A DNA stretch of 12,724 nt from Nitrososphaerota archaeon (GCA_002713205.1 PAVW01000003.1:16201-28924), one strand, 5' to 3'; numbered from the stretch's first letter, positions 170-12,724 are shown. Made by a program: numbers and translations. The notes: generated from the sequence alone by a model not told the origin.

Positions 170-1540
170 TTATAGTGTTTTTTCTATTATTGTAATACTT
201 CCTATTTTTGAATTACTAGGATCAGCATACCAGATATTCCCCTGTTTATCAATAGTTAACCACTGCACTAAGGGCGCTACTGATGGTATTTGAATTAGTT
301 TTGTTAATGCGGTTTCTGGATCCAGAACAGCTATCTTGTCTGTCACATGTTCTGCATACCATATATTTCCATATCTATCTTCAATCATCCCCGAAACCAA
401 TGCATATTCACTCTGCACAACATATCTATCAAACGTTAATGCTATCGGATCAAATCTTGTTATATTAGTACCACCATGTTCTCCAATCCATATCTTCCCA
501 TTAGATTCTTGTAAGAAAGACGCTGGTGTTACTAATCTTGTATCTATTGGTTGATATTCTACAATTTCGTTTGAAATAGGATCTAAAAGACCTATACTTC
601 CTCTACCAATTTCCGTAAACCACACACGTTCAAATTCATCTATCAGAATTGCTGCAGGGTGAATATCTTCATCTAAGTCAAATATCTTGAAGTTTTCACT
701 CTTGGAATCAAATCTTATAATCTTGCTTTTATTTATTATGGCAATCCATACATTATCATTAGAATCAATTTGTAAATCAATCATGAATCCTTCTATAGGA
801 GGTCTGAAAGTTCTTGTTACATGTTCGTCTGGATCTATATAGCCAAAAGTAATCGTCTTAGTATCAGTGAACCAAACTCTCCCTTTACTATCCATTGCCA
901 ATTTCATCGATGATTCCCCATCATGACTAAAGAATTCAAAGTCTTTAGTTTCAAGATTGAATTTCCATATTCCAGGATTAATAATATCACTTATCCATAT
1001 GACATCTCTTTTTTTATCGTAAAGAGGCACAAGAGGAAGTGATTTTGGATCCAATATTGAATATTCTTTTAAAATAAATTCAAGTTCGTTTAAACTAATC
1101 TTTGGAACTTCAATTACGTTCCCTATATGTCCCCTTGCAATCTTATTGCTATTCTTATCAAAAACTAACCATTCATAGGATGAATTTGTCTTACCTATAA
1201 CTATCACTTGCAAAGACTCACCAGATTTGACAGGTTGATTGTCTGTATGTACAGTTACTGTACTCTGATCAATCCTATCCCTATCCCATCCTCGAGCTTT
1301 TATGAATTTGATGTCACCATCTATTATTTTGAGTTTAAATTCGAATATAGGCTGTGCATTGAAATTCTTAATTACTAGTAATGTGAGTTTATTCTTTTGT
1401 TTCATTGATATAGAAACATCATCATGACTAACAGACTCTTCAGCTAATACACTAGTGATTCTGATTTGTTGTGAAGGCACTACTAATACTATAAAGAGAA
1501 CCACAACTAGAAATGTAGTGATAATTACTTTTAGTTTCAA
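170..1540 (-). CDS. Secreted or membrane-anchored seven-bladed beta-propeller protein (Vgb/NHL-type repeats) with an N-terminal Ig-like domain
   Basis: 456-aa ORF with a TTG start (caa at 1538-1540 on +). It has an N-terminal hydrophobic signal/anchor (KVIITTFLVVVLFIVLVVP). Seven repeats of about 40-45 aa each carry a [VI]W[FIY] strand (VIWISD, RVWFTD, NVWIAI, RVWFTE, KIWIGE, NIWYAE, NIWYAD). These are typically followed by I-x-x-[FLI]-D-P turns, the pattern I associate with streptogramin-lyase-like (COG4257, from memory) and NHL propellers. Function is not inferable. Confidence 0.75.
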   Translation of the reverse strand: MKLKVIITTFLVVVLFIVLVVPSQQIRITSVLAEESVSHDDVSISMKQKNKLTLLVIKNFNAQPIFEFKLKIIDGDIKFIKARGWDRDRIDQSTVTVHTDNQPVKSGESLQVIVIGKTNSSYEWLVFDKNSNKIARGHIGNVIEVPKISLNELEFILKEYSILDPKSLPLVPLYDKKRDVIWISDIINPGIWKFNLETKDFEFFSHDGESSMKLAMDSKGRVWFTDTKTITFGYIDPDEHVTRTFRPPIEGFMIDLQIDSNDNVWIAIINKSKIIRFDSKSENFKIFDLDEDIHPAAILIDEFERVWFTEIGRGSIGLLDPISNEIVEYQPIDTRLVTPASFLQESNGKIWIGEHGGTNITRFDPIALTFDRYVVQSEYALVSGMIEDRYGNIWYAEHVTDKIAVLDPETALTKLIQIPSVAPLVQWLTIDKQGNIWYADPSNSKIGSITIIEKTL

Positions 1541-1644: not shown

Positions 1645-2103
1645 TTAAACTGATTGAACAACAAACTGCCCCATATGTAATGGATGCCCTTCACCACAGA
1701 ATATAGTACAGAAATAAGTGAAAATACCTGTTTTGTCCGCCGTGAACTTGATTACAGATTGGGCATTGGGACTGATATGTATACTACCGATTTCTGGATA
1801 ACCATCTATGGCAAACCCGTGTGGTATATCCAAACTCTCTAACATAATAGTTACTGTCTGACCTTCATATACAGTTATAGAACAATAATCGAACCTCCAC
1901 TGATATGCATGCATCGTTATTTCTATTGTATCTTTGGATGAATCAGCTTTGAAAACATCCTCGTAACACTCGTTAGCATTTTGTAATCGTGTACCAAGAA
2001 TTTCATCAGATTCATCTATTCGCTGCTGCATAGATATAAAAACCATGAATATAGCAACAGTGATTATACCACCTGTCACACCTGCCATTATCATTCTATT
2101 CAT
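1645..2103 (-). CDS. N-terminally membrane-anchored CuA-type cupredoxin (cytochrome c oxidase subunit II / NosZ C-terminal domain-like)
   Basis: 152-aa ORF with one N-terminal TM helix (MAGVTGGIITVAIFMVFISM). The cupredoxin ligand pattern is H95 in LDIPHGFAIDG, then C132-TIF-C136-GEG-H140-PL-H143-M144 (codons 1672-1710). This compares with canonical CuA H...C-x3-C-x3-H-x2-M (e.g. CSEICGxxHxxM). No oxidase subunit I gene is adjacent. Confidence 0.8.
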   Translation of the reverse strand: MNRMIMAGVTGGIITVAIFMVFISMQQRIDESDEILGTRLQNANECYEDVFKADSSKDTIEITMHAYQWRFDYCSITVYEGQTVTIMLESLDIPHGFAIDGYPEIGSIHISPNAQSVIKFTADKTGIFTYFCTIFCGEGHPLHMGQFVVQSV

Positions 2104-2241
2104 AATTAAATTTCCTTCATTCTATAATTTGTGTGTTATTTATTCAATAGAAAGAAAATTACCATATAATTCTCCATATGTCTTTACGTAAAAATCCTTC
2201 ATATGTAATAATTAGATACAAATACAACTATTCACCGTATG

Positions 2242-2248
2242 TTTATTA
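2242..2248 (+). promoter_or_regulatory. Putative TATA box for 2276-2830
   Basis: tttatta is centred about 30 nt upstream of the ATG at 2276. The spacing fits an archaeal TATA at about -27 and a leaderless or very short-leader mRNA. Pattern-based only. Confidence 0.3.
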
Positions 2249-2275
2249 GAAAAGTTAATTAAGTTAAATGTTAAG

Positions 2276-2830
2276 ATGAACATTATGAAAAATATAGTGT
2301 TAGGAATAGCTGTAACAGCAGTATTTGCCACAATAATAGCAATATCATTGACGTCGGTAGTAGATAGTACAGAACCAGAAATTGGTACTGACGCTGTCAC
2401 TTTATTGCTCAATTACAAAAGAATACCAGCAGGAGACTTCATACACGTATATGATTCTACACCATTCCCTATAGCACAAGGACATATTGCAGTAAAAGTA
2501 GATTGTAATGAAGCTGGACACGGTATTGCATCACTTGCAATAGGTGTTGCACCAGAATTAGAAGTGAAAAAGCTGACAATGGATAATATGGTTCATGAAT
2601 TATCTTCCCATGGAGATATGTGTCTTTACCATATAGATTTACCACCAGAACATGGTTCGATGGTAACGGATGTAGCACTAATGAATACTAGTAGCAAATC
2701 AATAAGGCTTGGACCAACTGCCACAGTAGTTATGCATGTACAAAGCTTCGGTGACGAAATGGAACACAAAGAAAGTACAGACATGAAGCACGGAGATATG
2801 GGAAAAGAAGGTATGAAAATGGATAAATAA
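2276..2830 (+). CDS. N-terminally anchored extracytoplasmic protein with a Met/His-rich C-terminal tail (putative metal, likely copper, binding)
   Basis: 184-aa ORF with an N-terminal TM/signal anchor (IVLGIAVTAVFATIIAISL). The last 32 residues, MHVQSFGDEMEHKESTDMKHGDMGKEGMKMDK (2732-2827), contain 7 Met and 4 His. It is transcribed divergently from the cupredoxin gene. The start could also be the ATG at 2285. Confidence 0.7.
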   Translation: MNIMKNIVLGIAVTAVFATIIAISLTSVVDSTEPEIGTDAVTLLLNYKRIPAGDFIHVYDSTPFPIAQGHIAVKVDCNEAGHGIASLAIGVAPELEVKKLTMDNMVHELSSHGDMCLYHIDLPPEHGSMVTDVALMNTSSKSIRLGPTATVVMHVQSFGDEMEHKESTDMKHGDMGKEGMKMDK

Positions 2831-2841
2831 ATACCTATGAC

Positions 2842-2848
2842 TTTTTTT
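2842..2848 (+). terminator. Putative oligo-T archaeal terminator after 2276-2830
   Basis: A T7 run lies 12 nt after the TAA stop at 2828-2830. Oligo-dT tracts are the known archaeal RNA polymerase termination signal. A new TATA-like element follows. Confidence 0.35.
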
Positions 2849-2859
2849 AAATGTAAGAG

Positions 2860-2873
2860 TTATATTATAAAAT
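2860..2873 (+). promoter_or_regulatory. Putative TATA box for the 2893-3435 / 3447-4874 transcription unit
   Basis: ttatattataaaat is centred about 25-30 nt upstream of the ATG at 2893. Confidence 0.35.
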
Positions 2874-2892
2874 ATTATCAGAAATAATCATT

Positions 2893-3435
2893 ATGATGTA
2901 TAGAATGTATTATTTTTCATCATTTATTATTCTTACAGTGATAATATTAACAGGAGTTAATGTGGTATTTGCTCAGGAAACAGTAGAAGATGAAAACAAA
3001 CCGATGATAGCGCCTACAGATAAGGGTTCCATTGATGTCGAACTCTCATGGTCGCCTATCCCGTTAGAACCAGAGCAGACAACGCAATTGCATATACGTT
3101 TCCTTCAGAAAGATAAAGTGACACTACAACAACATATAGATTATAAAATATTTGTAGAGAATGATGGAATAGAAGTCTTCAGAATACCTCTCACACATAC
3201 GAACCCTGGTGAAGTTACCATACCATACGCTTTTACATCAACAGGTAGCTTCTTGATAGGTGTTGACGTTGAAGGTATACTCTTTCAACCCATATCGAAA
3301 GAAACCGCTACATTTTCAGTGGTAGTAGTACCAGAATTCCCAATTAGTGTGATGTTTATAATGACCATTGTTATAGCTGCTACTATAATTTCGATAAGAA
3401 TGAAGCCTTACGCAAAATCTATATATAAAAATTAA
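2893..3435 (+). CDS. Secreted single-module Ig-like protein with a PEFG-CTERM-like archaeosortase sorting signal
   Basis: 180-aa ORF with a signal peptide (FSSFIILTVIILTGVNVVFA|QE). One module of about 100 aa follows (IDVELSWSPIPLEPEQTTQLHIRFLQ...GSFLIGVDVEG). The C-terminus is tripartite: VVPEFPIS (PEFP codons 3331-3342), a hydrophobic helix VMFIMTIVIAATIISI, then basic RMK. Confidence 0.8.
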   Translation: MMYRMYYFSSFIILTVIILTGVNVVFAQETVEDENKPMIAPTDKGSIDVELSWSPIPLEPEQTTQLHIRFLQKDKVTLQQHIDYKIFVENDGIEVFRIPLTHTNPGEVTIPYAFTSTGSFLIGVDVEGILFQPISKETATFSVVVVPEFPISVMFIMTIVIAATIISIRMKPYAKSIYKN

Positions 3436-3446
3436 TTGTTTAGAAA

Positions 3447-4874
3447 ATGATGAAAAATAATGTATTACTATACATGTTTATAACATCTGCATTTATTGTT
3501 TCAATGATAAATTTTATACCTGTATTTGGTCATGGTCTGGCGGGTGATATGCCTCCACCAATTGATCTAAGTGGTAAAAATGTAACTGTTTTCGTTAAAA
3601 TGAACCCTGCTACGTTATCTGCTGCTGCTCCTGAAGATGCAACTATAGGAATAAGATTTTTTGATGTCACAACGGATGAGAACTTACAACAGGTAACATA
3701 CAGGATAGCGATTAAGAAAGATGGTAATTTGTTAATGAATGACTGGTTCTATCATCCTAATGGTGATCTGACGATTAAGATAAAACCCAAAGATACTGAA
3801 AAAGTAAGAATCTATGGCGATAAAGAACCACAACTCGGAGGATGGTATGGTAGGGGTGGACCACCAGTTGTTGAAGCGCCTATATTCCTTGAAGGTGGTC
3901 TATACAATATCTATGTAGAAATATTCACTGTAGGTACAACAAGGCAAATACTTGATCCACCATTACAATTTGATGCTTGGGTTAGTGTGGCGGAAGATAA
4001 TTCATTCACTGTAGTTAATAATGATAATGTATATCCAGTAATAATCAGAAGTTACTTCGATACGATCAATAAGCTTGAGTTCGAAGATGATAGTAATATG
4101 TTAAGATTTAGCATGCCGTTTAATTGGGAACCAGAATTTGTAGAATTTGTATCTATGATACATGAAGAAATTATAATTCCAAAAGATTTTAAATCATTAG
4201 TTGAGTCTGATACTTTCCAAGCATATGTGAATGATATTCCAGTAAGAGATAGAACGTTGCTTGTTGATCCTTATTCTTTTGAAGATAAATTAGTAATACA
4301 TTACTTGATAGCAACTCAGGAACTTATCAATATAAGTGAACAAATTTTAACAGATTCAACATATCCAGAAGAGATGATATTCACACTTAAGCCAATTGAA
4401 GGAACACAAACTAGAGAAGACACTAACATGAATTTGATTACTGATAATGGAAAAGTAAGAATACTAGTATCGTGGGATCAAAAAATGATCGAACCTGATA
4501 AACCTGTGAATTTTGATATTGTGTTTTTCGATGAGAATAAAAATAGTATACTCCGGGATGTTAATTATAATTTTAAGATATTCGATGATAGAGGTAATGA
4601 GATCTTCGTTAAAAACAATATTCTTAGTAATGAAGGTATAGATAGACTAACATACACGTTTGAAAATGAAGGTACTATAACATTACAGGTATATGTTATG
4701 GGTACAGGTTCGTTTCCATCTCAAATGGACACCTCCTTCATGGGAATTGTTGAAGGTTCGATAAGTGTTGTGCCAGAATTTCCTATAGGAGTAATTATAG
4801 CTATGGTAGGAGCCATTTCGGCTGTACTATTGTTCACACATAACAGATTAATGCCTAATCATTTGAAAGTTTAG
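3447..4874 (+). CDS. Large secreted multi-domain protein with a PEFG-CTERM-like sorting signal (paralogue A)
   Basis: 475-aa ORF starting 11 nt after the stop of 2893-3435 on the same strand, so it is likely co-transcribed. It has a signal peptide (FITSAFIVSMINFIPVFG|HG). The C-terminal module VRILVSWDQKMIEPDKPVNFDIVFFD is of the same type as in 2893-3435. It ends in VVPEFPIG (PEFP codons 4773-4784) + VIIAMVGAISAVLLF + THNR. It is colinear with 4855-6225. Confidence 0.85.
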   Translation: MMKNNVLLYMFITSAFIVSMINFIPVFGHGLAGDMPPPIDLSGKNVTVFVKMNPATLSAAAPEDATIGIRFFDVTTDENLQQVTYRIAIKKDGNLLMNDWFYHPNGDLTIKIKPKDTEKVRIYGDKEPQLGGWYGRGGPPVVEAPIFLEGGLYNIYVEIFTVGTTRQILDPPLQFDAWVSVAEDNSFTVVNNDNVYPVIIRSYFDTINKLEFEDDSNMLRFSMPFNWEPEFVEFVSMIHEEIIIPKDFKSLVESDTFQAYVNDIPVRDRTLLVDPYSFEDKLVIHYLIATQELINISEQILTDSTYPEEMIFTLKPIEGTQTREDTNMNLITDNGKVRILVSWDQKMIEPDKPVNFDIVFFDENKNSILRDVNYNFKIFDDRGNEIFVKNNILSNEGIDRLTYTFENEGTITLQVYVMGTGSFPSQMDTSFMGIVEGSISVVPEFPIGVIIAMVGAISAVLLFTHNRLMPNHLKV

Positions 4875-6225
4875 TTAACGATGGTCTAATTCTTATGATT
4901 ACTACTGCAGATACTAATGTGATCATCGTGAATAATGGACCAAATGGAAATTCTGGTATTACAGTAAATAGTAACGGTGCAGCCTCTCCAGTATTATTTA
5001 TATTTTCAATCAGTAACAGTATAGTACCTGTCTGTTCTTTTGTAAAAGTATAATCTTGTACTATAGCCCCTATTGGAGCTTTATGGTGTTTTCTAAAGAT
5101 CTCTGTTCCATCTTTTAGGAGTACAAAGTCAGCAGTAGAATGTCTTAATGTATCAAATGTTTTTGGATCTCTCAATGTAATTATGAATTTTGTATTCGTA
5201 TCGGGTTCTATAAGAGCAGGACTCCATGAAATTTGTAACAGGAAATTTTCTTTTCCAGACATAATTTGCACCGGGAACTTTGGAACTTCCCTTGGAATAA
5301 GAGAAAAGACAGCAGTATTCTGCTCGGATTTTTCCTTTTGTGCTATTCTTATTAACTTGTCCTTTGATATCACGAAATGAACTATTCGTGTATTCTCATA
5401 TGAATAATCATCAATCAATATTTCTCTATTAGAAAGTTCAACACCATTTATTGTACCTACATAACTATTAGACATTAACTCTGTCAAATCATGAGGAATA
5501 TGTACCTCTTCATGCACCAATGGAACCTGGCTAAGGTAGTTTACATTCCAGTATAATGGCATTGAAAAAGTTATCATTCGTAAAGATTCATCATAATAAA
5601 TATTGCTTATTTGATCGTAGTAAGTTTTGATAAAAATATCATGTTGCTTACCGATATCATCCAATACCTGATGACGTGTGGTTTTACCTATACTTGCATA
5701 TAGATCGAAGTTTAATGGTTCTGCAAGTTTATTCTCATACTGTCCCAAGGATAAAACACTAATATTGTAATGATAAAGACCTCCGTCAAGTACTGGGCCT
5801 TTTACCACTGCAGGAATTTCCCGATTAGTGACTACTGCGTTGTAAAGAGATTCTCTATTGCCGATCACTTCGTTTTTTTCGGTATCAGTATGTTCAAATC
5901 TAATCGCCACTATACCATCACTACTATGGAACTGATCGTCAAGTAGAAGTTCATTAGTGCGCATCATCTTTACACGCAAAGTTATATGGGGAATAGTAGT
6001 GTCTGTATTAACTTCACGAATACTTATGAAAGCAGTACCAACTCTATCATCTTCTTCAAGAAATACTGGTTTCATATCTAGTGTGACGTAAATCCTTACA
6101 CCATCAACCAAAATCTGTCTTGATTCATCAAAACCCAATCCTTGCCCGAACGAGGGTAATTGCATGGTGCTGAATAGCAATACCCCTGATACAATTAACA
6201 TAAAAATTGGAATGGATGAATTCAT
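4855..6225 (-). CDS. Large secreted multi-domain protein with a PEFG-CTERM-like sorting signal (paralogue B)
   Basis: 456-aa ORF with a signal peptide (IFMLIVSGVLLFSTMQLPSFG|QG). The C-terminal module is FLLQISWSPALIEPDTNTKFIITLRD. It ends in VIPEFPFG (PEFP codons 4945-4956 on the minus strand) + PLFTMITLVSAVVII + RIR. Blocks of similarity to 3447-4874 run along its whole length. Its stop (4855-4857) lies inside the 3' end of 3447-4874. Confidence 0.85.
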   Translation of the reverse strand: MNSSIPIFMLIVSGVLLFSTMQLPSFGQGLGFDESRQILVDGVRIYVTLDMKPVFLEEDDRVGTAFISIREVNTDTTIPHITLRVKMMRTNELLLDDQFHSSDGIVAIRFEHTDTEKNEVIGNRESLYNAVVTNREIPAVVKGPVLDGGLYHYNISVLSLGQYENKLAEPLNFDLYASIGKTTRHQVLDDIGKQHDIFIKTYYDQISNIYYDESLRMITFSMPLYWNVNYLSQVPLVHEEVHIPHDLTELMSNSYVGTINGVELSNREILIDDYSYENTRIVHFVISKDKLIRIAQKEKSEQNTAVFSLIPREVPKFPVQIMSGKENFLLQISWSPALIEPDTNTKFIITLRDPKTFDTLRHSTADFVLLKDGTEIFRKHHKAPIGAIVQDYTFTKEQTGTILLLIENINNTGEAAPLLFTVIPEFPFGPLFTMITLVSAVVIIRIRPSLTKLSND

Positions 6226-6250
6226 TTAAAAAAAAGTATAGTTTCTCCGA

Positions 6251-6262
6251 TAAAAATATTTA
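6251..6262 (-). promoter_or_regulatory. Putative TATA box for 4855-6225
   Basis: The minus strand reads ttaaatatttttatc, centred about 31 nt upstream of the ATG at 6225-6223. A T8 run (A8 on +, 6228-6235) sits between it and the ATG. That run could alternatively be the terminator of the upstream gene 6270-6956. Confidence 0.3.
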
Positions 6263-6269
6263 AGCGATA

Positions 6270-6956
6270 CTAGAAATCTTCATTTCTTCTTTTACGAGTC
6301 AACGAAACTATTGCTATGATTACACCAGCAGCACCAAGTCCCATCCCTAACATGCCAAAATTATAAGCATTTTCTGTATCGTAACGAAAATCAGTAACTA
6401 TTCCGATACTCTGTTCTGTCTTACTCTCCACATTCCTGATCTTGTCCGACATCTGATCAACTGTAGCTTGTAATTGATTCACAGAAGACTGTATCTGCGA
6501 TGTAAGGTTCTTCAATTCTGTAGATTCTACAGAGATATCGGGAAATGATATCTTCTTTTTATCCTCAACATCTTCCACAGGAATCTCTGCGTCAACATCA
6601 TTGTTGCTAACAATACCTTGTATCACGATCATGTAACTACCAAGCCTAGTAGGTATTATTGGAGAAGTATAGAGACCTAACTCTTGAGTAGGTTCGATAT
6701 CTAGTATTTTTGTAACACCGCCATACTTTATTTCCGCCTCTAGACTTTTGGGATCGATAATAAGCGGTTTAGATTCTTTTTTAAATTCTAACACTATAGC
6801 ATTGAGCTCCCCCACAAGTGGTGGTTCGTTAATCCATCCAGTTTTTATAGTAATATCTCCAACATGAATCTCCGTATGAGCATAAGCAGAATTAAGAACA
6901 GAGATAGAAAGCATAAATGTTAAAAATACAATTATTGAACATCTAACTATATACAT
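6270..6956 (-). CDS. Secreted, C-terminally anchored protein with a predicted N-terminal His (CopC/YcnI-like design), a coiled-coil stalk and a TM + basic tail
   Basis: The ORF track starts at 7028, but that codon is TTG and adds 24 non-signal residues. The first ATG (cat at 6954-6956 on +) gives MYIVRCSIIVFLTFMLSISVLNSAYA|HTEIHVGD, a textbook signal peptide. The mature protein begins with His, followed by a beta-rich domain (ITIKTGWINEPPLVGELNAIVLEF). Next come a heptad-like helical segment (LKNLTSQIQSSVNQLQATVDQMSDKIRNVESK), a TM helix (MLGMGLGAAGVIIAIVSL) and TRKRRNEDF. The family call is inference. Confidence 0.7.
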   Translation of the reverse strand: MYIVRCSIIVFLTFMLSISVLNSAYAHTEIHVGDITIKTGWINEPPLVGELNAIVLEFKKESKPLIIDPKSLEAEIKYGGVTKILDIEPTQELGLYTSPIIPTRLGSYMIVIQGIVSNNDVDAEIPVEDVEDKKKISFPDISVESTELKNLTSQIQSSVNQLQATVDQMSDKIRNVESKTEQSIGIVTDFRYDTENAYNFGMLGMGLGAAGVIIAIVSLTRKRRNEDF

Positions 6957-7188
6957 AGAAATGATATTTTTATTTCCACATATTACTTTAACGAAAATTC
7001 CATAATTCTTATCAATTGATTTGTACAACCCTATATATCTCTGTAAACTTGATATTTAACAACTCACTATTCATGAACTACACCTCAATATTGATATATG
7101 GCTATAAAGGCTATATTTCGAAATATATGCAAAGGTTTATGGATAATCACAAGGAATTATTGAATAACTAATAAAATTGGTGTATGAT

Positions 7189-8757
7189 ATGAAATGGAAG
7201 ACATTAGAACATAATGGTGTTGTATTCCCTCCTGAATACAAGCCTAAAGGCTTTAAGATAAAGATCAAAGAAAAAACTATAGAGCTCAATATACAGCAAG
7301 AAGAGATGGCTGTTGCATGGGCTAAGAAGAAGGATACTCCATACGTACAGGATCAAGTTTTTGTGGAAAATTTCGTTAAAGATTTTCTTAGATTGTTTTC
7401 TCCAGAGTTCAGAGATGCTACTATAAATGATATTAGCTTTAGCGAGATCTATGAGTGGATGAATAAAGAAAGTGAAGTTGTTATAGACAAGGAAACCAAG
7501 AAGAAACTAACAGTCGAAAGGAAGAGAATAAGAGAGGAACTAAAGGGTAAATATGGTATAGCCAATGTTGATGGTCAGACCTTCGACATATCCAACTGGA
7601 TGGTAGAACCTCCAGGTATATTCATGGGTAGAGGTAAACATCCATTACGAGGTAAATGGAAACCCAGAATTAACCGTGAAGATGTAACTCTAAACCTTGG
7701 AGAAGATGTAAAAGTGTCTCCAGGAGACTGGGGTCAGATCGTACACGATCATGATTCCATGTGGCTTGCAAGATGGATTGATAAATTAGTTGGTAAAGAG
7801 AAATATGTATGGCTTTCAGATGCTGCCACTTTAAGACAAGAACGAGATAAGGATAAGTATGATAAAGCAAGTAAGCTTAGTCAACAGATAGAGAAAGTTA
7901 TCAATAAGACCTACAAAGCAATGAAATCGAATAACATCAAAGAATGTAAGATAGCTACCGTATGCTATCTAATATACAAACTCGCAATGAGGGTAGGTGA
8001 TGAAAAAGATCCAGATGAGACAGACACGGTTGGTGCTACAACATTAAGGGTGGAGCATATGAAATTAACCGATAGAATTATAGAATTTGATTTTCTGGGA
8101 AAAGATAGTGTTAGATGGCAGAAAAGCATAGAGTTTGACGGTAGGAATAATGTAATTTATGAAAATATGAGGAAATTTATTAAGGGAAAGAAAGATGATG
8201 AATTGATATTTTCGGGTATAACTTCAAGACATGTAAACAATTTCTTTAATAATATAGTTCTAGGGTTAAGTGCAAAAGTTTTTAGAACTCATCTTGCTAC
8301 AGAAATTGTTAGGCATTATCTGTCAAGTGTTGATAGTAAGATTACAAAAAGTTCTGAATTTGTAAAGATATATCATGTAAGAGTGGCTAACCTTGAAGCT
8401 GCAATAACATGTAACCATAAAAAGGCTCCAACAAAGAATTTTGAACAGATATTAGATAAGAAGCGTGAGAAGATTAAGAATATGGAAGAGGCTAAACCAA
8501 ATACCAATAAACAGAAGGAAAAACTCAAGGAGCGAAAGGAGAAGGCAGAACTTCAGTTGAAATTGGCTGAAAGTACTAAGGATTACAACCTTGGAACATC
8601 TCTTCGTAATTACATAGATCCTAGAGTGGTCAAGGCATGGGCAGATCATGTAGATTTAGAGTGGAAGAAGATCTATACGAGTGCGTTACAAAGGAAGTTC
8701 TTGTGGGTAGAGAAGGAAACGCCAAGATGGCAAAAGATAGTAATTAAATCACATTAG
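7189..8757 (+). CDS. top1: DNA topoisomerase IB (eukaryote-type topoisomerase I)
   Basis: Motifs match human TOP1 as I recall it. KWKTLEHNGVVFPPEY matches KWKFLEHKGPVFAPPY. TVGATTLRVEH matches TVGCCSLRVEH (Arg). FLGKDSVRW matches FLGKDSIRY (Lys, codon 8101-8103). AKVFRTH matches AKVFRTY (Arg). ITCNHKKAP matches ILCNHQRAP (His). A Lys/Glu-rich coiled-coil linker follows, then LGTSLRNYIDPR matches LGTSKLNYLDPR, with the catalytic Tyr codon at 8611-8613. The ORF-track start at 7177 is TTG, so I prefer the ATG at 7189 (MKWKTLEH). Confidence 0.95.
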   Translation: MKWKTLEHNGVVFPPEYKPKGFKIKIKEKTIELNIQQEEMAVAWAKKKDTPYVQDQVFVENFVKDFLRLFSPEFRDATINDISFSEIYEWMNKESEVVIDKETKKKLTVERKRIREELKGKYGIANVDGQTFDISNWMVEPPGIFMGRGKHPLRGKWKPRINREDVTLNLGEDVKVSPGDWGQIVHDHDSMWLARWIDKLVGKEKYVWLSDAATLRQERDKDKYDKASKLSQQIEKVINKTYKAMKSNNIKECKIATVCYLIYKLAMRVGDEKDPDETDTVGATTLRVEHMKLTDRIIEFDFLGKDSVRWQKSIEFDGRNNVIYENMRKFIKGKKDDELIFSGITSRHVNNFFNNIVLGLSAKVFRTHLATEIVRHYLSSVDSKITKSSEFVKIYHVRVANLEAAITCNHKKAPTKNFEQILDKKREKIKNMEEAKPNTNKQKEKLKERKEKAELQLKLAESTKDYNLGTSLRNYIDPRVVKAWADHVDLEWKKIYTSALQRKFLWVEKETPRWQKIVIKSH

Positions 8758-9022
8758 TTACACCATGTATATAATTTATGAATTTAAGCTGATATTACCA
8801 GTAATTTCTACTTGCACTTTATGGTATATTTTTATATTGAAAAGCAAATACAACTAAAATAACACTAGTTATATTTTATACCTATTATAGAATATTTAAT
8901 TGATTACAGCCTTCAGAATCCTATGTACTTTACATATAACTACTATTATTCTTACCGTGAAACTTAATTCTACTTGAATGACGACTAGAACATGTCAATA
9001 AAGTCATATTGTACAATATTCT

Positions 9023-10360
9023 ATGTTAATTCGTAACTTGTTGGGCTATAAGATAAAAAATAAAGAATGCATATATTGTTTTTTCGTATTCATTACAATC
9101 ATATCGTATTTCAATCTAGCTTACGCGCAGGACTATACATCAGAATCACTACTTATGACAGTCTTTACCAATGGAAAAACCCTAGTTGAATACAGATTAA
9201 GTACTAATGCTACAGTTCCTATATCAACAGTGCCGTTGTTTGGTAATGTATTTGAGCAATTGATAACTATTAATGAAGATAACCTACCTATTGATAATAG
9301 AATGCAAAATGGTTCATTGGTTATGGATACATTTGGTGTTTCTACTATATTCGTAATATATACAACTCCAGATCTTGTAAACGGAAAAGACAAGATCTGG
9401 ACCTTTACTGTAGACTCACCTATAGATACTTCTATAAGATTACCCGAAGAAAGCATCATAATCGGCTTAAACCAGATGCCGAATTCGATCAAGTTATACA
9501 AAAACCAATACGTGTTGATTATGCCAGAAGGTCATAACGAGATTAGTTATATTATAAGTACTCTATACACAAAAGAGCAAACCATAGTAGCTTTAAGCGA
9601 GGCAGAGAAAATTATAGAAGACCACAAGAATAAGGGTGTAGTTGTTAGTAGTGCTGAAAGTAAATTGAATGAAGCAAAGAATGCTTTTGATAATGCTAAG
9701 TATACATATGCAGAAATTCTTGCCAATGATGTAAAGACTATTACCAATAATACTAGTTATATCGCAATACTTGCAAGCAATGCATTAAGTGAAGCCAAGA
9801 CAACTATAAATGAGAACAACAAACAGGGTTTTGATATTTTCAATGCGAACCAGCTTTTTGGTCAAGCAGACCAAGAATACATAAACGGAAATTACGATGA
9901 AGCATTAAACTTAGCAAAACAAGCAAAGACTATTGCGTTAGATACAAGAAATGATTCAGTGATTTCTTTTGATCTATTATATTTAATTACTGGTATTATT
10001 ACGATGTCTGCTGTAGCTGGTACTGTTGTGTATATACACTTCAGAAAGAAAACTGTGATAGGAAAAACTTCGTCTAGAATAATCAATGGGCTTGTAGTTA
10101 AGAAAAGGAGAATCATAAATCTAACTAAGATATTAACTGAAAAACCTTATCTGCGAGAAGATGATAAAGATGTTCTAAACTTCATTGTAGAAAACGGTGG
10201 AGAGGTGTTTGAAAATGAAATCAGAGACAGATTTGATCTCCCAAAGACTACTGTATGGAGATTGGTTAAGCGTCTGAAACGTGAAGATCTCGTTGATATA
10301 GAGAAAGTTGATAGACAGAATCTAATAAGAATTAGGGAACAATTTACCAAAACTGACTAA
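9023..10360 (+). CDS. Membrane-tethered winged-helix transcriptional regulator with a large extracytoplasmic domain
   Basis: 445-aa ORF with a signal peptide/anchor (CIYCFFVFITIISYFNLAYA|QD). A beta-rich ectodomain of about 150 aa is followed by two helical repeats of about 50 aa (9596-9940). One TM helix follows (FDLLYLITGIITMSAVAGTVVYIHF, from 9968). The cytoplasmic C-terminus (from about 10145) is DVLNFIVENGGEVFENEIRDRFDLPKTTVWRLVKRLKREDLVDIEKVDRQNLIRI, a MarR/TrmB/ArsR-type HTH plus wing. The architecture resembles what I recall as COG2512, membrane-associated regulators. Confidence 0.8.
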   Translation: MLIRNLLGYKIKNKECIYCFFVFITIISYFNLAYAQDYTSESLLMTVFTNGKTLVEYRLSTNATVPISTVPLFGNVFEQLITINEDNLPIDNRMQNGSLVMDTFGVSTIFVIYTTPDLVNGKDKIWTFTVDSPIDTSIRLPEESIIIGLNQMPNSIKLYKNQYVLIMPEGHNEISYIISTLYTKEQTIVALSEAEKIIEDHKNKGVVVSSAESKLNEAKNAFDNAKYTYAEILANDVKTITNNTSYIAILASNALSEAKTTINENNKQGFDIFNANQLFGQADQEYINGNYDEALNLAKQAKTIALDTRNDSVISFDLLYLITGIITMSAVAGTVVYIHFRKKTVIGKTSSRIINGLVVKKRRIINLTKILTEKPYLREDDKDVLNFIVENGGEVFENEIRDRFDLPKTTVWRLVKRLKREDLVDIEKVDRQNLIRIREQFTKTD

Positions 10361-10425
10361 AATGCTATAAAGTAAAGATAAATTAATGCTGGTAAAATAG
10401 CGATATTCGTGCCGGGTGGCAGGGG

Positions 10426-10521
10426 GCCGGGGTAGCTCAGCCTGGTTAGAGCGCCAGTCCTCCATACAAAGGGGCTAAACTCATAATCTGGAGGTCGCGG
10501 GATCGAATCCCGTCCCCGGCA
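10426..10521 (+). tRNA. tRNA with anticodon CAT (elongator Met, or Ile2 if C34 is agmatidinylated), containing a 21-nt intron
   Basis: Cloverleaf folded by hand. The acceptor GCCGGGG (10426-10432) pairs 7/7 with CCCCGGC (10514-10520), and the discriminator is A10521. The D arm is GCTC-AGCCTGGTTA-GAGC, the variable loop is AGGTC, and the T arm is GCGGG-ATCGAAT-CCCGT. The anticodon arm CCAGA-CTCATAA-TCTGG (CAT at 10482-10484) forms only after removal of 10458-10478. CCA is not encoded. G1-C72 argues against an archaeal initiator. Confidence 0.85.
10458..10478 (+). other. tRNA intron at a non-canonical position (within the 5' strand of the anticodon stem, between positions 30 and 31)
   Basis: tcctccatacaaaggggctaa interrupts CCAG|ACTCATAATCTGG. 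The canonical 37/38 reading fails: it would put C at position 33 and a T-T mismatch at 31-39. I could not convincingly draw the bulge-helix-bulge motif by eye. Confidence 0.65.
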
Positions 10522-10573
10522 TACAATTCAATGATCTATTTCCTACAATTCAGAATAATCTAAACACGATTGA

Positions 10574-10583
10574 AATATAAATA
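10574..10583 (+). promoter_or_regulatory. Putative TATA box for 10604-11125
   Basis: aatataaata is centred about 26 nt upstream of the GTG start at 10604. Confidence 0.3.
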
Positions 10584-10603
10584 ACGTTCATACTGTTGTT
10601 TCC

Positions 10604-11125
10604 GTGAAGTTTTTTACCAGTATAGGAATATCTATATTTTTATCTCTACTGATTCTTAACCCAACTACAAGCTCTAACGCCCATCAATTGTTTAATTCTG
10701 AAGAAAGAAGAATTGGTGGTTATATTATGCAGATCGGTACAGAGCCAGAAATACCAGCAGTTGGAAAACAGATCAAAATACTATTCAGAGCAAGTGACCG
10801 TGATTATAATGATTTAATTGATGTAAAAATTGGTATGCGAATATACAAAGATGATGTGTTATTAGAAGAATTACAACCGAGAATTTTAAGTGATGGACAT
10901 TTCGATAAGGAATATACATTTACTGATGCTGGTATTCATATAGTTGAAGTAGATCTGTATACATGGAAAGGTAACGTGATAACAGAAAAGTTTAACATAA
11001 GTACTCTAAATCCGTTTGGATATATATTCTATTCAATGGTAATTATCGGGGTATTATTTCCGGCATCTTTATTTGTATTTCTGTTATTCCATAAAAAAAT
11101 TAAAGGAAAAAATTTCACAGTGTAA
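10604..11125 (+). CDS. Secreted single-module protein with a predicted N-terminal His and an NPFG + TM + basic C-terminus
   Basis: 173-aa ORF with a GTG start and a signal peptide (ISIFLSLLILNPTTSSNA|HQLF). An Ig-like module follows (IMQIGTEPEIPAVGKQIKILFRASD...GIHIVEVDL). The C-terminus is NPFGYIFYSMVIIGVLFPASLFVFLLF + HKKIKGK. The N-terminal segment resembles that of 6270-6956 (G-x-I-x3-G-x3-EP-x3-VG-x4-I). Confidence 0.7.
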   Translation: MKFFTSIGISIFLSLLILNPTTSSNAHQLFNSEERRIGGYIMQIGTEPEIPAVGKQIKILFRASDRDYNDLIDVKIGMRIYKDDVLLEELQPRILSDGHFDKEYTFTDAGIHIVEVDLYTWKGNVITEKFNISTLNPFGYIFYSMVIIGVLFPASLFVFLLFHKKIKGKNFTV

Positions 11126-11267
11126 CATTATTAATAACGTAAAAACAAAAAATATATTGTTTATTAATTACTATACCATACCAGAAGTGTATGAGTCTAA
11201 ATAATACCTGTATGGATAAAAGTAAAAAAAATATTCCGATTAAATTGATGTGTTGTATAAAGAGATA

Positions 11268-12233
11268 TTAAGTTAACATTGAATCAACTTTTTCGATAAA
11301 CTCATTAAACTTCTGTTTTGGAATCAAGGCACCACAAGCCCTCTGATGTCCTCCACCAGAACCACCCATTTCCACTGAAAGTTTGTTCACGATTCTTCCT
11401 AAATGATGATTAGAAGAATCTGAACCACGTAATGATAAAACATAATTGTCATTCTTCTCCTTGTATGCAACCGCAGCCTGAACGTTTTGTTCTAATGCTA
11501 GTAGCATATTTGCAACTATACTTGTAGATAGACTGTGCGTTTGTACATAAACCAAATTATTCATCATTTTTGATTCTCTTTCGATAACAGCAAGATTGAT
11601 ATGCACTTTTTGCGCATAATTCTTTGCAGAATCTAGGATACCAGTTATTTCATGTGGTATTGTTGTAATAAGTTCATTAACTAAAGAAAGTAGAAAATCG
11701 GTATTGTGTTGGTTGTCGTAAATAGCATATGAGAATGATGTAGCTTCGAAAAATACAAACTGTTTATCATACATCTTGTATAGTTTATTTGCTATAGGTT
11801 TATTCTTCATATCATCAGCTATTGCAGCACATGCAGCCAACAATGCAAATCTCTTTGTCAATTTATCACTAAATCTATTATAGATCTGCACCGAAGTACA
11901 TTCATCTATTGTATGTATAAGAATAATTTGATCATTATTTAATGTGTTTTTTATTTCATCAGCCAAATCATGATGATCTATGTAAGTAATATCAATGCCC
12001 TTCTTTCGTAAATCATGTAAAATTTCAATGAATTTTTTTTCATTTGCCTTGCTAAGACCTAGATCGCAAATGAAAAGACGATCAATATCCTGCATTTTTG
12101 AAACGTGTTCCAATATGGGTATGAAATCAGTATAATCTGTTAAGAATTGATAGGCATTAAAAATAGATTTTATCATTGTAGCAGAGACTATACCATCAAC
12201 ATCTTCCTTATGTGAAATACATACAGTCACCAT
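11268..12233 (-). CDS. DHH/DHHA1 family phosphoesterase (NrnA/RecJ-like size and motifs)
   Basis: 321-aa ORF. It has motif I SHKEDVDG (DxD), motif II FICDLG, motif III YIDHHD (DHH) and the DHHA1 motif GGSGGGHQRACGA (GGGH). Substrate (nanoRNA, pAp, cyclic nucleotides, ssDNA) cannot be told from sequence alone. Confidence 0.9.
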   Translation of the reverse strand: MVTVCISHKEDVDGIVSATMIKSIFNAYQFLTDYTDFIPILEHVSKMQDIDRLFICDLGLSKANEKKFIEILHDLRKKGIDITYIDHHDLADEIKNTLNNDQIILIHTIDECTSVQIYNRFSDKLTKRFALLAACAAIADDMKNKPIANKLYKMYDKQFVFFEATSFSYAIYDNQHNTDFLLSLVNELITTIPHEITGILDSAKNYAQKVHINLAVIERESKMMNNLVYVQTHSLSTSIVANMLLALEQNVQAAVAYKEKNDNYVLSLRGSDSSNHHLGRIVNKLSVEMGGSGGGHQRACGALIPKQKFNEFIEKVDSMLT

Positions 12234-12453: not shown

Positions 12454-12645
12454 ATGTTCAATATAGTATATGTTATAGGTTTTATATCAACATTGACGAT
12501 GATCGATATTAGTTTAATTGGTGAGACTTTCATTGCCTATATAGGAATTGTTTTATTCAATAATAGGAAATGTATTGGTACTAGCGAGAATGACATGATA
12601 ATGATAATTTTCTGTCCTCATCTTGTGACATATACTATTGGGTAA
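12454..12645 (+). CDS. Doubtful small hydrophobic ORF (63 aa)
   Basis: An open frame with two hydrophobic stretches (IVYVIGFISTLTMIDISLIG, FIAYIGIVLF). It lies in a very AT-rich 430-bp spacer, where Phe/Ile/Asn/Tyr-rich ORFs arise by chance. No recognisable motif. Confidence 0.2.
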   Translation: MFNIVYVIGFISTLTMIDISLIGETFIAYIGIVLFNNRKCIGTSENDMIMIIFCPHLVTYTIG

Positions 12646-12664
12646 GTAATTTCATACAGTCGAT

Positions 12665-12724
12665 AAAAGTAAAAGTAAAAGTAAAAGTAAAAGTAAAAGT
12701 AAAAGTAAAAGTAAAAGTAAAAGT
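12665..12724. repeat. Perfect hexanucleotide microsatellite (AAAAGT)x10, truncated by the window edge
   Basis: Ten uninterrupted identical units run from 12665 to the last base of the window. Confidence 0.95.

Follow-up and report, generated by a model that had tools for sequence, protein, structure and literature searches.

An exported protein family with a predicted N-terminal histidine in a putative copper-acquisition neighbourhood of a Nitrososphaerota archaeon

The object of this analysis is a 12,724-nucleotide stretch of DNA from a marine Nitrososphaerota archaeon (GCA_002713205.1 PAVW01000003.1:16201-28924), called below, in its whole length, the window. An earlier note, made from the sequence alone, had proposed that six genes at positions 1645-7028, with products designated here A to F, form an extracytoplasmic copper-handling cluster. 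This proposal finds support, most of which comes from beyond the window. We estimate at about 60% the probability that these genes, together with two others of the window, J and I (Table 1), are the accessory component of a copper-acquisition neighbourhood around copC/copD that is conserved throughout Nitrososphaeria, with protein F acting as a Cu(II) shuttle similar to YcnI of Bacillus subtilis. The grounds for this are homology, residue conservation, topology and synteny; F is the marker gene of the neighbourhood.

Conservation and genomic context of protein F

Cleavage of the signal peptide is predicted to leave His27 as residue 1 of mature F. This histidine is present in all 153 relatives of F that cover the respective column, and in the 153 aligned sequences it is preceded by Ala or Gly at position -1 and by Ala or Val at position -3. 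Trp41 and Glu44 are invariant as well (154/154 in both cases), as is Asn52. The same residues, together with Ala26 and His27, are kept in at least 90% of the sequences in a set of 92 diverse representatives of the family. The earlier note had pointed to His as the first mature residue of F and I, and its occurrence in 153/153 and 4/4 sequences, respectively (A|HQLFN in all four sequences of I), is far beyond chance. At the opposite end F has a C-terminal anchor, formed by the hydrophobic segment 198-221 and the following RKRRNEDF. In the structural model, Trp41 and Glu44 are located where the hairpin beginning with His27 ends and immediately behind it.

An exhaustive search with the F ectodomain profile against 1.84 billion cluster representatives (50% identity) yielded 1,038 clusters at E<=1e-3, of which 327 reached E<=1e-10. 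Most of the matching proteins are about 190-240 amino acids (aa) long, and profile position 1 falls at residue ~24-37, i.e., directly after the signal peptide. Even distant members share a common layout, which includes A-x-A|H, the GW..EPP and YGG..K motifs, a C-terminal transmembrane (TM) helix and a basic tail. The 92 representatives belong to no Pfam or NCBIfam family, except for YtkA matches in two of them (the best at 5.5e-5) and filamin-type matches in multi-repeat proteins. His-rich insertions, which are typical of metal-binding proteins, occupy the loop behind the third strand of the sandwich in the archaeal member P0007 (GDTHDHYDHT) and in P0236 from a high-GC contig (HSHSSTTTTTHAHSH).

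As to the genomic context, the F alignment, run against species-representative genomes, picked out 37 loci, all of them in Nitrososphaeria, including Nitrosocaldus, Nitrosothermus, Nitrosotalea, Nitrosopumilaceae and Nitrososphaeraceae. Synteny was analysed by BLAST of the window proteins against the open reading frames (ORFs) of relatives and with hidden Markov models (HMMs) built from the neighbouring CopC and CopD domains. An ORF containing both CopC and CopD lies within 5 kb of F in 34 of 40 archaeal loci, a set extending from Nitrosocaldus to Nitrosopumilus, and within 1 kb in 28 of the 40. The large J-like gene, usually divergent from F, encodes a CopC-CopD-(YtkA)-propeller fusion of 926-1,070 aa, whose CopC (PF04234) and CopD (PF05425) domains score above the Pfam cut-off in five lineages, whose YtkA-like domain (PF13115) does so in Nitrosocaldus, and whose propeller is of the Vgb_lyase/SGL type. 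The cluster of Nitrosocaldus is contiguous, with the order J-E-B-F-C-D-I, while the loci in metagenome-assembled genomes of Nitrososphaeraceae have the order CopCD(-), F(+), CopC-YtkA protein(+); compared with the relatives, the gene order in the window is rearranged.

Distant members of the F family occur on contigs with 54-75% G+C (vs 33% in the window), which are probably bacterial. In each of the six high-GC contigs in which the gene downstream of the F-like gene could be read, it encodes CopC or CopC-CopD and comes immediately next or past one small ORF. Co-localisation in related genomes, on which the earlier note had made its hypothesis depend, is therefore borne out; it is strong and implicates copper directly, with an F homologue standing beside the CopC+CopD(+YtkA)+propeller fusion in most archaeal loci and beside CopC/CopD in the high-GC contigs.

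One distant locus, L049, deserves a separate description. At 8924-12190 it contains an F-like gene, followed by a gene for a 735-aa CopC-CopD-YtkA-cytochrome c fusion and by a PD40 beta-propeller gene, with a FUR regulator and an ABC-3 metal transporter encoded upstream. Echoing protein A and the propeller of the window, this arrangement points to a redox module and a propeller as components that CopCD systems acquire repeatedly or share. Further proteins with a predicted mature His are encoded in the copCD loci of Nitrososphaeraceae, namely at 747-1313 and 2947-3750 in L018, and also in L020 and L022. By profile comparison, these proteins (AYA|HIFGG..., VCA|HNFTP...) have no relation to either F or I; a His at the N-terminus seems to recur as a theme in the copCD locus.

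Published transcriptomes offer a point of reference. In Nitrososphaera viennensis, the copC/D region (NVIE_014250-014310) is among the most strongly induced under copper limitation, its exported proteins of unknown function included, and NVIE_1457, located between two CopC/D genes, is upregulated by 2.80 log2 units (PMC7785015). This region is a neighbourhood of the same type, with CopC/D fusions carrying YtkA/SGL, exported proteins, a regulator and plastocyanin; the window differs from it in the lack of CopC/D genes and in the rearranged order. Because of the Nitrososphaeraceae gene order given above, F is likely the counterpart of NVIE_1457. A homologue search and cluster look-up for an N. 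viennensis orthologue of F by sequence returned no labelled protein.

Comparison with known copper systems and alternative explanations

In B. subtilis, the CopC-CopD-YtkA protein YcnJ exchanges Cu(II) with YcnI (PMC8424229, PMC12154828, PMC13344008). YcnI consists of a signal peptide, a His1 domain and a C-terminal TM helix (the presence of the latter, mentioned in the earlier note, is confirmed by the literature), and it binds Cu(II) through the amine and N-delta of His27 and through Glu50, while Trp137 caps the site by a cation-pi contact (PMC8424229). F has in common with YcnI the signal peptide, His1, the beta-sandwich ectodomain, the C-terminal TM helix, a conserved Glu and Trp, and, in the relatives, a location beside a CopC-CopD-YtkA gene, as well as the proposed capture or exchange of Cu(II) outside the membrane. 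The two systems differ in that the Trp of F is 14 residues after His1 (vs about 110 in YcnI), F has a helical stalk of about 45 residues, the archaeal importer bears an extra beta-propeller, and no YcnK-type regulator was identified.

We suppose that signal-peptide cleavage would expose His1 of F at the start of an immunoglobulin (Ig)-like beta-sandwich, which also carries Trp41 and Glu44, and that the stalk and the C-terminal TM helix would hold this domain outside the membrane. In this scheme F is the key component. Most probably, it would then bind one Cu(II) via the N-terminal amine, the imidazole of His and the carboxylate of Glu, with Trp capping the site (a mono-histidine brace), and exchange it with the histidine-brace CopC domain of the CopC-CopD-YtkA importer, as the unrelated YcnI does with YcnJ. 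Proteins I, C, D and E, anchored by TM helices or PEFG-CTERM-like ends, would probably be further copper-binding or copper-buffering surface proteins. As for A, it could serve as a redox partner (compare the cytochrome c fused to CopCD in L049) or as a client for CuA metallation, and B would contribute an ectodomain bearing His, Cys and Met.

The solved fold that matches the F sandwich best is that of the copper-resistance protein CrdA of Helicobacter pylori (5.8e-5), followed by DUF4426 and many filamin-type Ig domains; CopC is found at rank 40 (6.4e-3). CrdA (PDB 9LL2/9LL4) is a periplasmic copper- and silver-binding protein; its likeness to F (TM-score 0.66 on the target) concerns the fold only, the identity being 14%, and F lacks a comparable Met-rich motif. 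CopC (PF04234; C0-1 type with a Cu(II) histidine brace) shares with F the N-terminal His after the signal peptide, the Ig/cupredoxin-like sandwich and the association with CopD, but differs in the absence of profile similarity; in place of the two brace histidines of CopC, F contains a single invariant His. The YtkA/CtaK and FixH E-set domains (PF13115, PF05751), which have a link to copper delivery and occur in fusion with CopD, resemble F and I in being small beta-sandwiches outside the cytoplasm. Their links to the window proteins are weak (hhalign probabilities of 43% for I and 21% for F against YtkA, and no Pfam YtkA match in the window) and lie below any membership threshold, and the YtkA domains of the neighbouring fusions are a separate family. 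Against PDB profiles, the full-length F alignment matched coiled coils only, through its stalk, and the trimmed ectodomain gave no useful match. Structure and HMM searches placed no domain in a non-metal family; such a placement would, according to the earlier note, have refuted its hypothesis.

A number of results weigh against the copper reading. The HMMs from the relatives' domains detected neither CopC nor CopD in the 12.7-kb window; the importer gene CopC-CopD(-YtkA) next to F, characteristic of ycnKJI, is thus seen in the relatives and not here, and CopC/CopD are not near F in the loci L001, L002 and L005 either (10 kb of flank each). By sequence, F is an analogue of YcnI/DUF1775 and CopC and not a member of these families. 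With the YcnI sequence taken from PDB 7ME6 and paired with 3ESM, hhalign gave 0.1-0.2% for the F profiles (0.1-3% for F, I, C and D altogether), and PF07987 matched none of 122 F-family members scanned (at E<=5 for 30 of them and E<=0.01 for 92); comparison of F with the neighbouring CopC domains gave 0.1-1.6%, with no PF04234 match. Of the likeness to CopC and YcnI pointed out in the earlier note, the predicted mature His1 and the C-terminal TM helix of F stand. YcnI is outside the top 50 fold matches of F, and the fold itself is a generic Ig-like sandwich, which also matches filamin and other non-metal domains. The overall confidence of the F model is low (mean pLDDT, the predicted local distance difference test score, of 65.6), with 81-90 in the sandwich (27-131) and poor values in the stalk and anchor, and the predicted closeness of His27, Trp41 and Glu44 is derived from the register of the beta1-beta2 hairpin. 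Further, the profile link between F and I (85%) is short of certainty, one third of the D/E proteins have Asp or Gln in place of His1, the tail of B is variable or absent in 14 homologues, A is restricted to close relatives according to BLAST of the related loci, and the correspondence of F to NVIE_1457 is one of gene position only. Finally, that these proteins bind and transfer copper, and what A, B, C, D, E and I each do, is what we infer from the data and not a direct result.

The cluster might instead encode generic structural or adhesion proteins of the cell surface or S-layer space, composed of Ig-like domains, a coiled-coil stalk and sorting signals, in which case the proximity to copCD would reflect a shared envelope localisation or co-regulation rather than copper chemistry. 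Most fold matches of F are indeed filamin, Rib, Big and other non-metal Ig domains, and filamin and Big_1 occur among the distant matches of the F profile; besides, PEFG-CTERM and S-layer proteins increase together when Nitrosopumilus is stressed by H2O2 (PMC6593220), and the copCD region of N. viennensis is also induced in biofilms (PMC12448741). We nevertheless consider this explanation rather unlikely, since it does not account for the invariant predicted mature N-terminal residue, accompanied by invariant Trp and Glu, in more than 150 sequences, nor for the tight coupling with CopC/CopD in archaea and in high-GC lineages, the frames being often overlapping or adjacent.

It is also unlikely that the cluster serves electron transport in energy metabolism (ammonia oxidation or respiration), with A as a CuA carrier and the PEFG-CTERM proteins as partners of ammonia oxidation. 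The CuA-type fold of A is bona fide, L049 has a fusion of CopCD with a cytochrome c, and Ca. Nitrosopelagicus brevis co-expresses two PEFG-CTERM proteins and a membrane-bound cupredoxin with amoABCX and nirK (bioRxiv 10.1101/175141). However, these PEFG proteins may or may not be orthologous to C, D or E, A is limited to close relatives, the F family accompanies CopCD in other lineages as well (the contigs with 54-75% G+C), and the window does not tell whether the organism oxidises ammonia. The last explanation, which we regard as very unlikely, is that the metal at the N-terminal His is not copper but, for instance, Ni, Zn or Fe, or that the site is catalytic, similar to that of lytic polysaccharide monooxygenases (LPMO) or BIM1, rather than part of a Cu(II) shuttle. 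N-terminal His sites are indeed also found among Ni/Co uptake proteins and LPMO/X325 proteins, and B has weak matches to the BIM1-like Pfam family (the best at 0.0057, in 3 of 15 members). Yet the single invariant His of F is not joined by the second His of the canonical histidine brace, B has no N-terminal His and its fold search returned no LPMO/X325, and the conserved partner, CopC/CopD, is a copper system.

If F does bind Cu(II) via His1, it would represent a second, independent origin of the YcnI-type copper shuttle, the Cu(II) hand-off model would extend to archaea and to many uncultured bacteria, and F could be used as a marker gene for copper-acquisition loci in metagenomes; to our knowledge, this model has so far been tested only in Bacillus. 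Ammonia-oxidising archaea depend on enzymes that contain copper, and the copper of the sea is both scarce and strongly bound in complexes; we know of no account of how these archaea capture copper beyond the presence of CopC/D. As a tentative generalisation, which we hold possible rather than probable, the F family may be a previously unrecognised class of extracytoplasmic Cu(II) metallochaperones, widespread among bacteria and archaea, with a YcnI-like brace on an unrelated Ig-like scaffold, and the Nitrososphaeria paralogues I, C, D and E may form a copper-capturing layer beneath the S-layer that feeds CopC-CopD and thence the copper enzymes. Irrespective of this, the "exported proteins of unknown function" flanking archaeal copC/D are now resolved into families with testable residues, and the main flanking protein, F, is part of a large family without annotation, comprising some 1,000 clusters, which is coupled to CopC/CopD in other lineages too.

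Proteins accompanying F

The beta-sandwich of I is homologous to those of C, D and E and probably to that of F, as judged from profile-profile comparison. The hhalign probabilities are 96% between the N- and C-terminal domains of D, 99% between the C-terminal domain of D and C, 94.5% between C and I, 91% between the C-terminal domain of D and I, and 85% (E 6e-6, 101 columns) between the broad F profile and I; by BLAST, C matches the C-terminal domains of both D and E. The C-termini of C, D and E contain the motifs VPEFPIS, VPEFPIG and IPEFPFG, respectively, and in all three cases a TM helix and basic residues come next; TIGR04296 (PEFG-CTERM) matched D only, at 16.5 bits vs the cut-off of 25. 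Since the beta-sandwich domains are homologous, the PEFG-CTERM-like proteins are linked to the His1 proteins by more than the adjacency on which the earlier note had placed them in the same group: homology of C/D to I and, probably, of I to F now adds to it.

In the D/E family the predicted mature residue 1 is His in 32 of 49 proteins, Asp in 10 and Gln in five, within the motif [HDQ]-G-L-x-x-[DE]. The caveat of the earlier note that paralogue E has no N-terminal His is correct, E having Gln in this position, while His is found in 32/49 of the family. The D/E-like proteins of the loci L026-L029 and L035, titled 'Nitrosopumilus sp.', are 600-700 aa long and come from DNA of about 59% G+C, very unlike the window (33%); these loci may belong to symbiont-type lineages. 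The locus L039 encodes, at 13465-14307, a 280-aa fusion of a plastocyanin/azurin domain (PF00127, 6.8e-10) and a C-like beta-sandwich, 74% identical to C. This fusion of a plastocyanin and a C-like domain ties the C family to a blue-copper protein.

The propeller of J is 41-43% identical to residues 572-893 of the CopC-CopD-YtkA-propeller fusions of L038 and L039; J is devoid of the CopC and CopD parts and matches the propeller only. We also considered J as a truncated fusion retaining YtkA and rejected this, because the corresponding match (98.7%) was an artefact of the inclusion of J in the profile and fell to 0.2% without it.

Protein A, described in the earlier note as a CuA-pattern cupredoxin, matches the solved CuA domains of Thermus thermophilus ba3 oxidase subunit II (1.2e-8) and of the NosZ C-terminus (3.5e-8) in a phmmer search of PDB. 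Its alignment with the CuA domains of ba3/caa3 oxidase subunit II and N2O reductase extends over the whole cupredoxin, and the ligand pattern H95...C132-x3-C136-x3-H140-x2-H143 is in register with Thermus CuA. In contrast to those domains, A is a stand-alone protein, not encoded beside oxidase subunit I, and the axial Met is substituted by His143 in A and by the corresponding His in its homologues from L038, L039 and L040 (two distinct homologues, since the BLAST alignments of the copies from L039 and L040 did not differ), the Met after it being variable. A can thus be described as a CuA-pattern cupredoxin whose axial ligand deviates. The scores of A are below the curated cut-offs (15 bits vs 22 for Pfam COX2, 39 vs 147.7 for TIGR02866). 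Relatives whose F is 59-68% identical to that of the window carry A-like cupredoxins (61-64% identity) in the cluster, beside B in L038 and beside the propeller gene in L039, which matches the arrangement in the window. Cupredoxins recur in the neighbourhood in general, with plastocyanin genes in the loci of closer relatives.

Protein B ends in ...EMEHKESTDMKHGDMGKEGMKMDK, and the Met/His-rich tail noticed in the earlier note is therefore real in the window protein, but it is not a conserved feature among the 14 homologues. The alignment with these homologues shows instead an invariant core of D60, H70, C77, M115, C116, Y118 and H119. AlphaFold models B with confidence (pLDDT 81.6, exceeding 90 throughout the ectodomain) as a jelly-roll-like sandwich, for which no fold neighbour in PDB scored below 1e-3, and the B alignment had no useful match among PDB profiles. 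We rejected the assignment of B to cupredoxins or BIM1-like proteins, the model being a jelly-roll without a significant PDB neighbour. The match of B to PF20238 (BIM1-like) is sub-threshold (0.062), a mature N-terminal His is absent, and there is no X325/LPMO protein among the fold matches. Homologues of B are encoded near CopCD in Nitrosocaldus, Nitrososphaeraceae and L038; by profile-profile comparison, B is unrelated to C, D, E, F and I. Its identification with NVIE_014290 was dropped, since that gene is called a putative cation channel in PMC12448741.

Gene layout of the window and minor features

The ORF coordinates were verified in the sequence, whose G+C content is 32.8% (Table 1). The window proteins other than the 321-aa product of 11268-12233 were scanned against Pfam and NCBIfam with curated cut-offs, helices were called by a Kyte-Doolittle hydropathy scan, and cleavage sites were derived from the -3/-1 rule, which predicted AYA|H for F, SNA|H for I, VFG|H for D and SFG|Q for E. 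J, A, B, C, D, E, F and I each have an N-terminal hydrophobic helix; C, D, E, F and I have a further helix at the C-terminus. The extracytoplasmic or membrane-anchored location predicted in the earlier note for all six products of 1645-7028 is accordingly upheld, a signal or anchor helix being found in each.

Table 1. Genes of the 12,724-nucleotide window, with coordinates counted from its first nucleotide
Product	Position	Strand	Predicted features
J	170-1540	-	N-terminal TM helix, ectodomain of ~110 aa, Vgb_lyase/SGL-type beta-propeller (Pfam Vgb_lyase 1e-21)
A	1645-2103	-	Membrane-anchored CuA-type cupredoxin; directly upstream of J on the same strand
B	2276-2830	+	Anchored jelly-roll-like ectodomain, His/Met/Glu-rich tail; divergent from A
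C	2893-3435	+	Signal peptide, single beta-sandwich, C-terminus of PEFP, TM helix and basic residues (PEFG-CTERM-like)
D	3447-4874	+	Signal peptide (VFG|H), two C/I-type beta-sandwiches around a middle domain of ~170 aa, PEFG-CTERM-like end
E	4855-6225	-	Full-length paralogue of D (28% identity), Gln at predicted mature residue 1 (SFG|Q)
F	6270-6956	-	Signal peptide (AYA|H), beta-sandwich 27-131, helical stalk 146-187, C-terminal TM helix, basic tail
Topoisomerase IB	7177-8757	+	Eukaryote-type, full-length (Topoisom_I 1.3e-64, Topoisom_I_N 1.1e-61)
H	9023-10360	+	Membrane-spanning winged-helix protein
I	10604-11125	+	Signal peptide (SNA|H), beta-sandwich, C-terminal TM helix, basic tail
321-aa ORF	11268-12233	-	ORF call, without annotation

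The topoisomerase IB fits a Nitrososphaeria origin of the window. Between its gene and that of I lies the gene of H, for which no homologue was found in the related loci. H combines an N-terminal hydrophobic helix, an outside domain of about 275 aa and a second TM segment (312-340) with a winged-helix domain on the cytoplasmic side (DUF7343 2.7e-8, MarR_2 3.8e-6). It thus has the architecture of a one-component regulator that spans the membrane, and it could act as the cluster's sensor or regulator. The genes of D and E are convergent, and there is no room for separate terminators between them, because their 3' ends overlap by 20 nucleotides (4855-4874).

As for possible regulatory sites, the copper-responsive motif of N. 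viennensis, TTCSGSMTTTGWACYANT, is not enriched in the window, which contains one match with three mismatches vs 0.46 expected. The 13-mer CTATTGAATAAAT is common to the region upstream of J (1578-1590) and the divergent promoter region between A and B (2138-2150, reverse complement), with shorter copies in the intergenic region between F and the topoisomerase gene (7156-7167) and upstream of the 321-aa ORF (12552-12562); it may be a promoter element or regulator site, or else a chance repetition in AT-rich DNA. At its very end, the window runs off within a perfect tandem array of the hexamer (AAAGTA)n of about 10 copies (12662-12724), which may mark a contig end or an assembly break.

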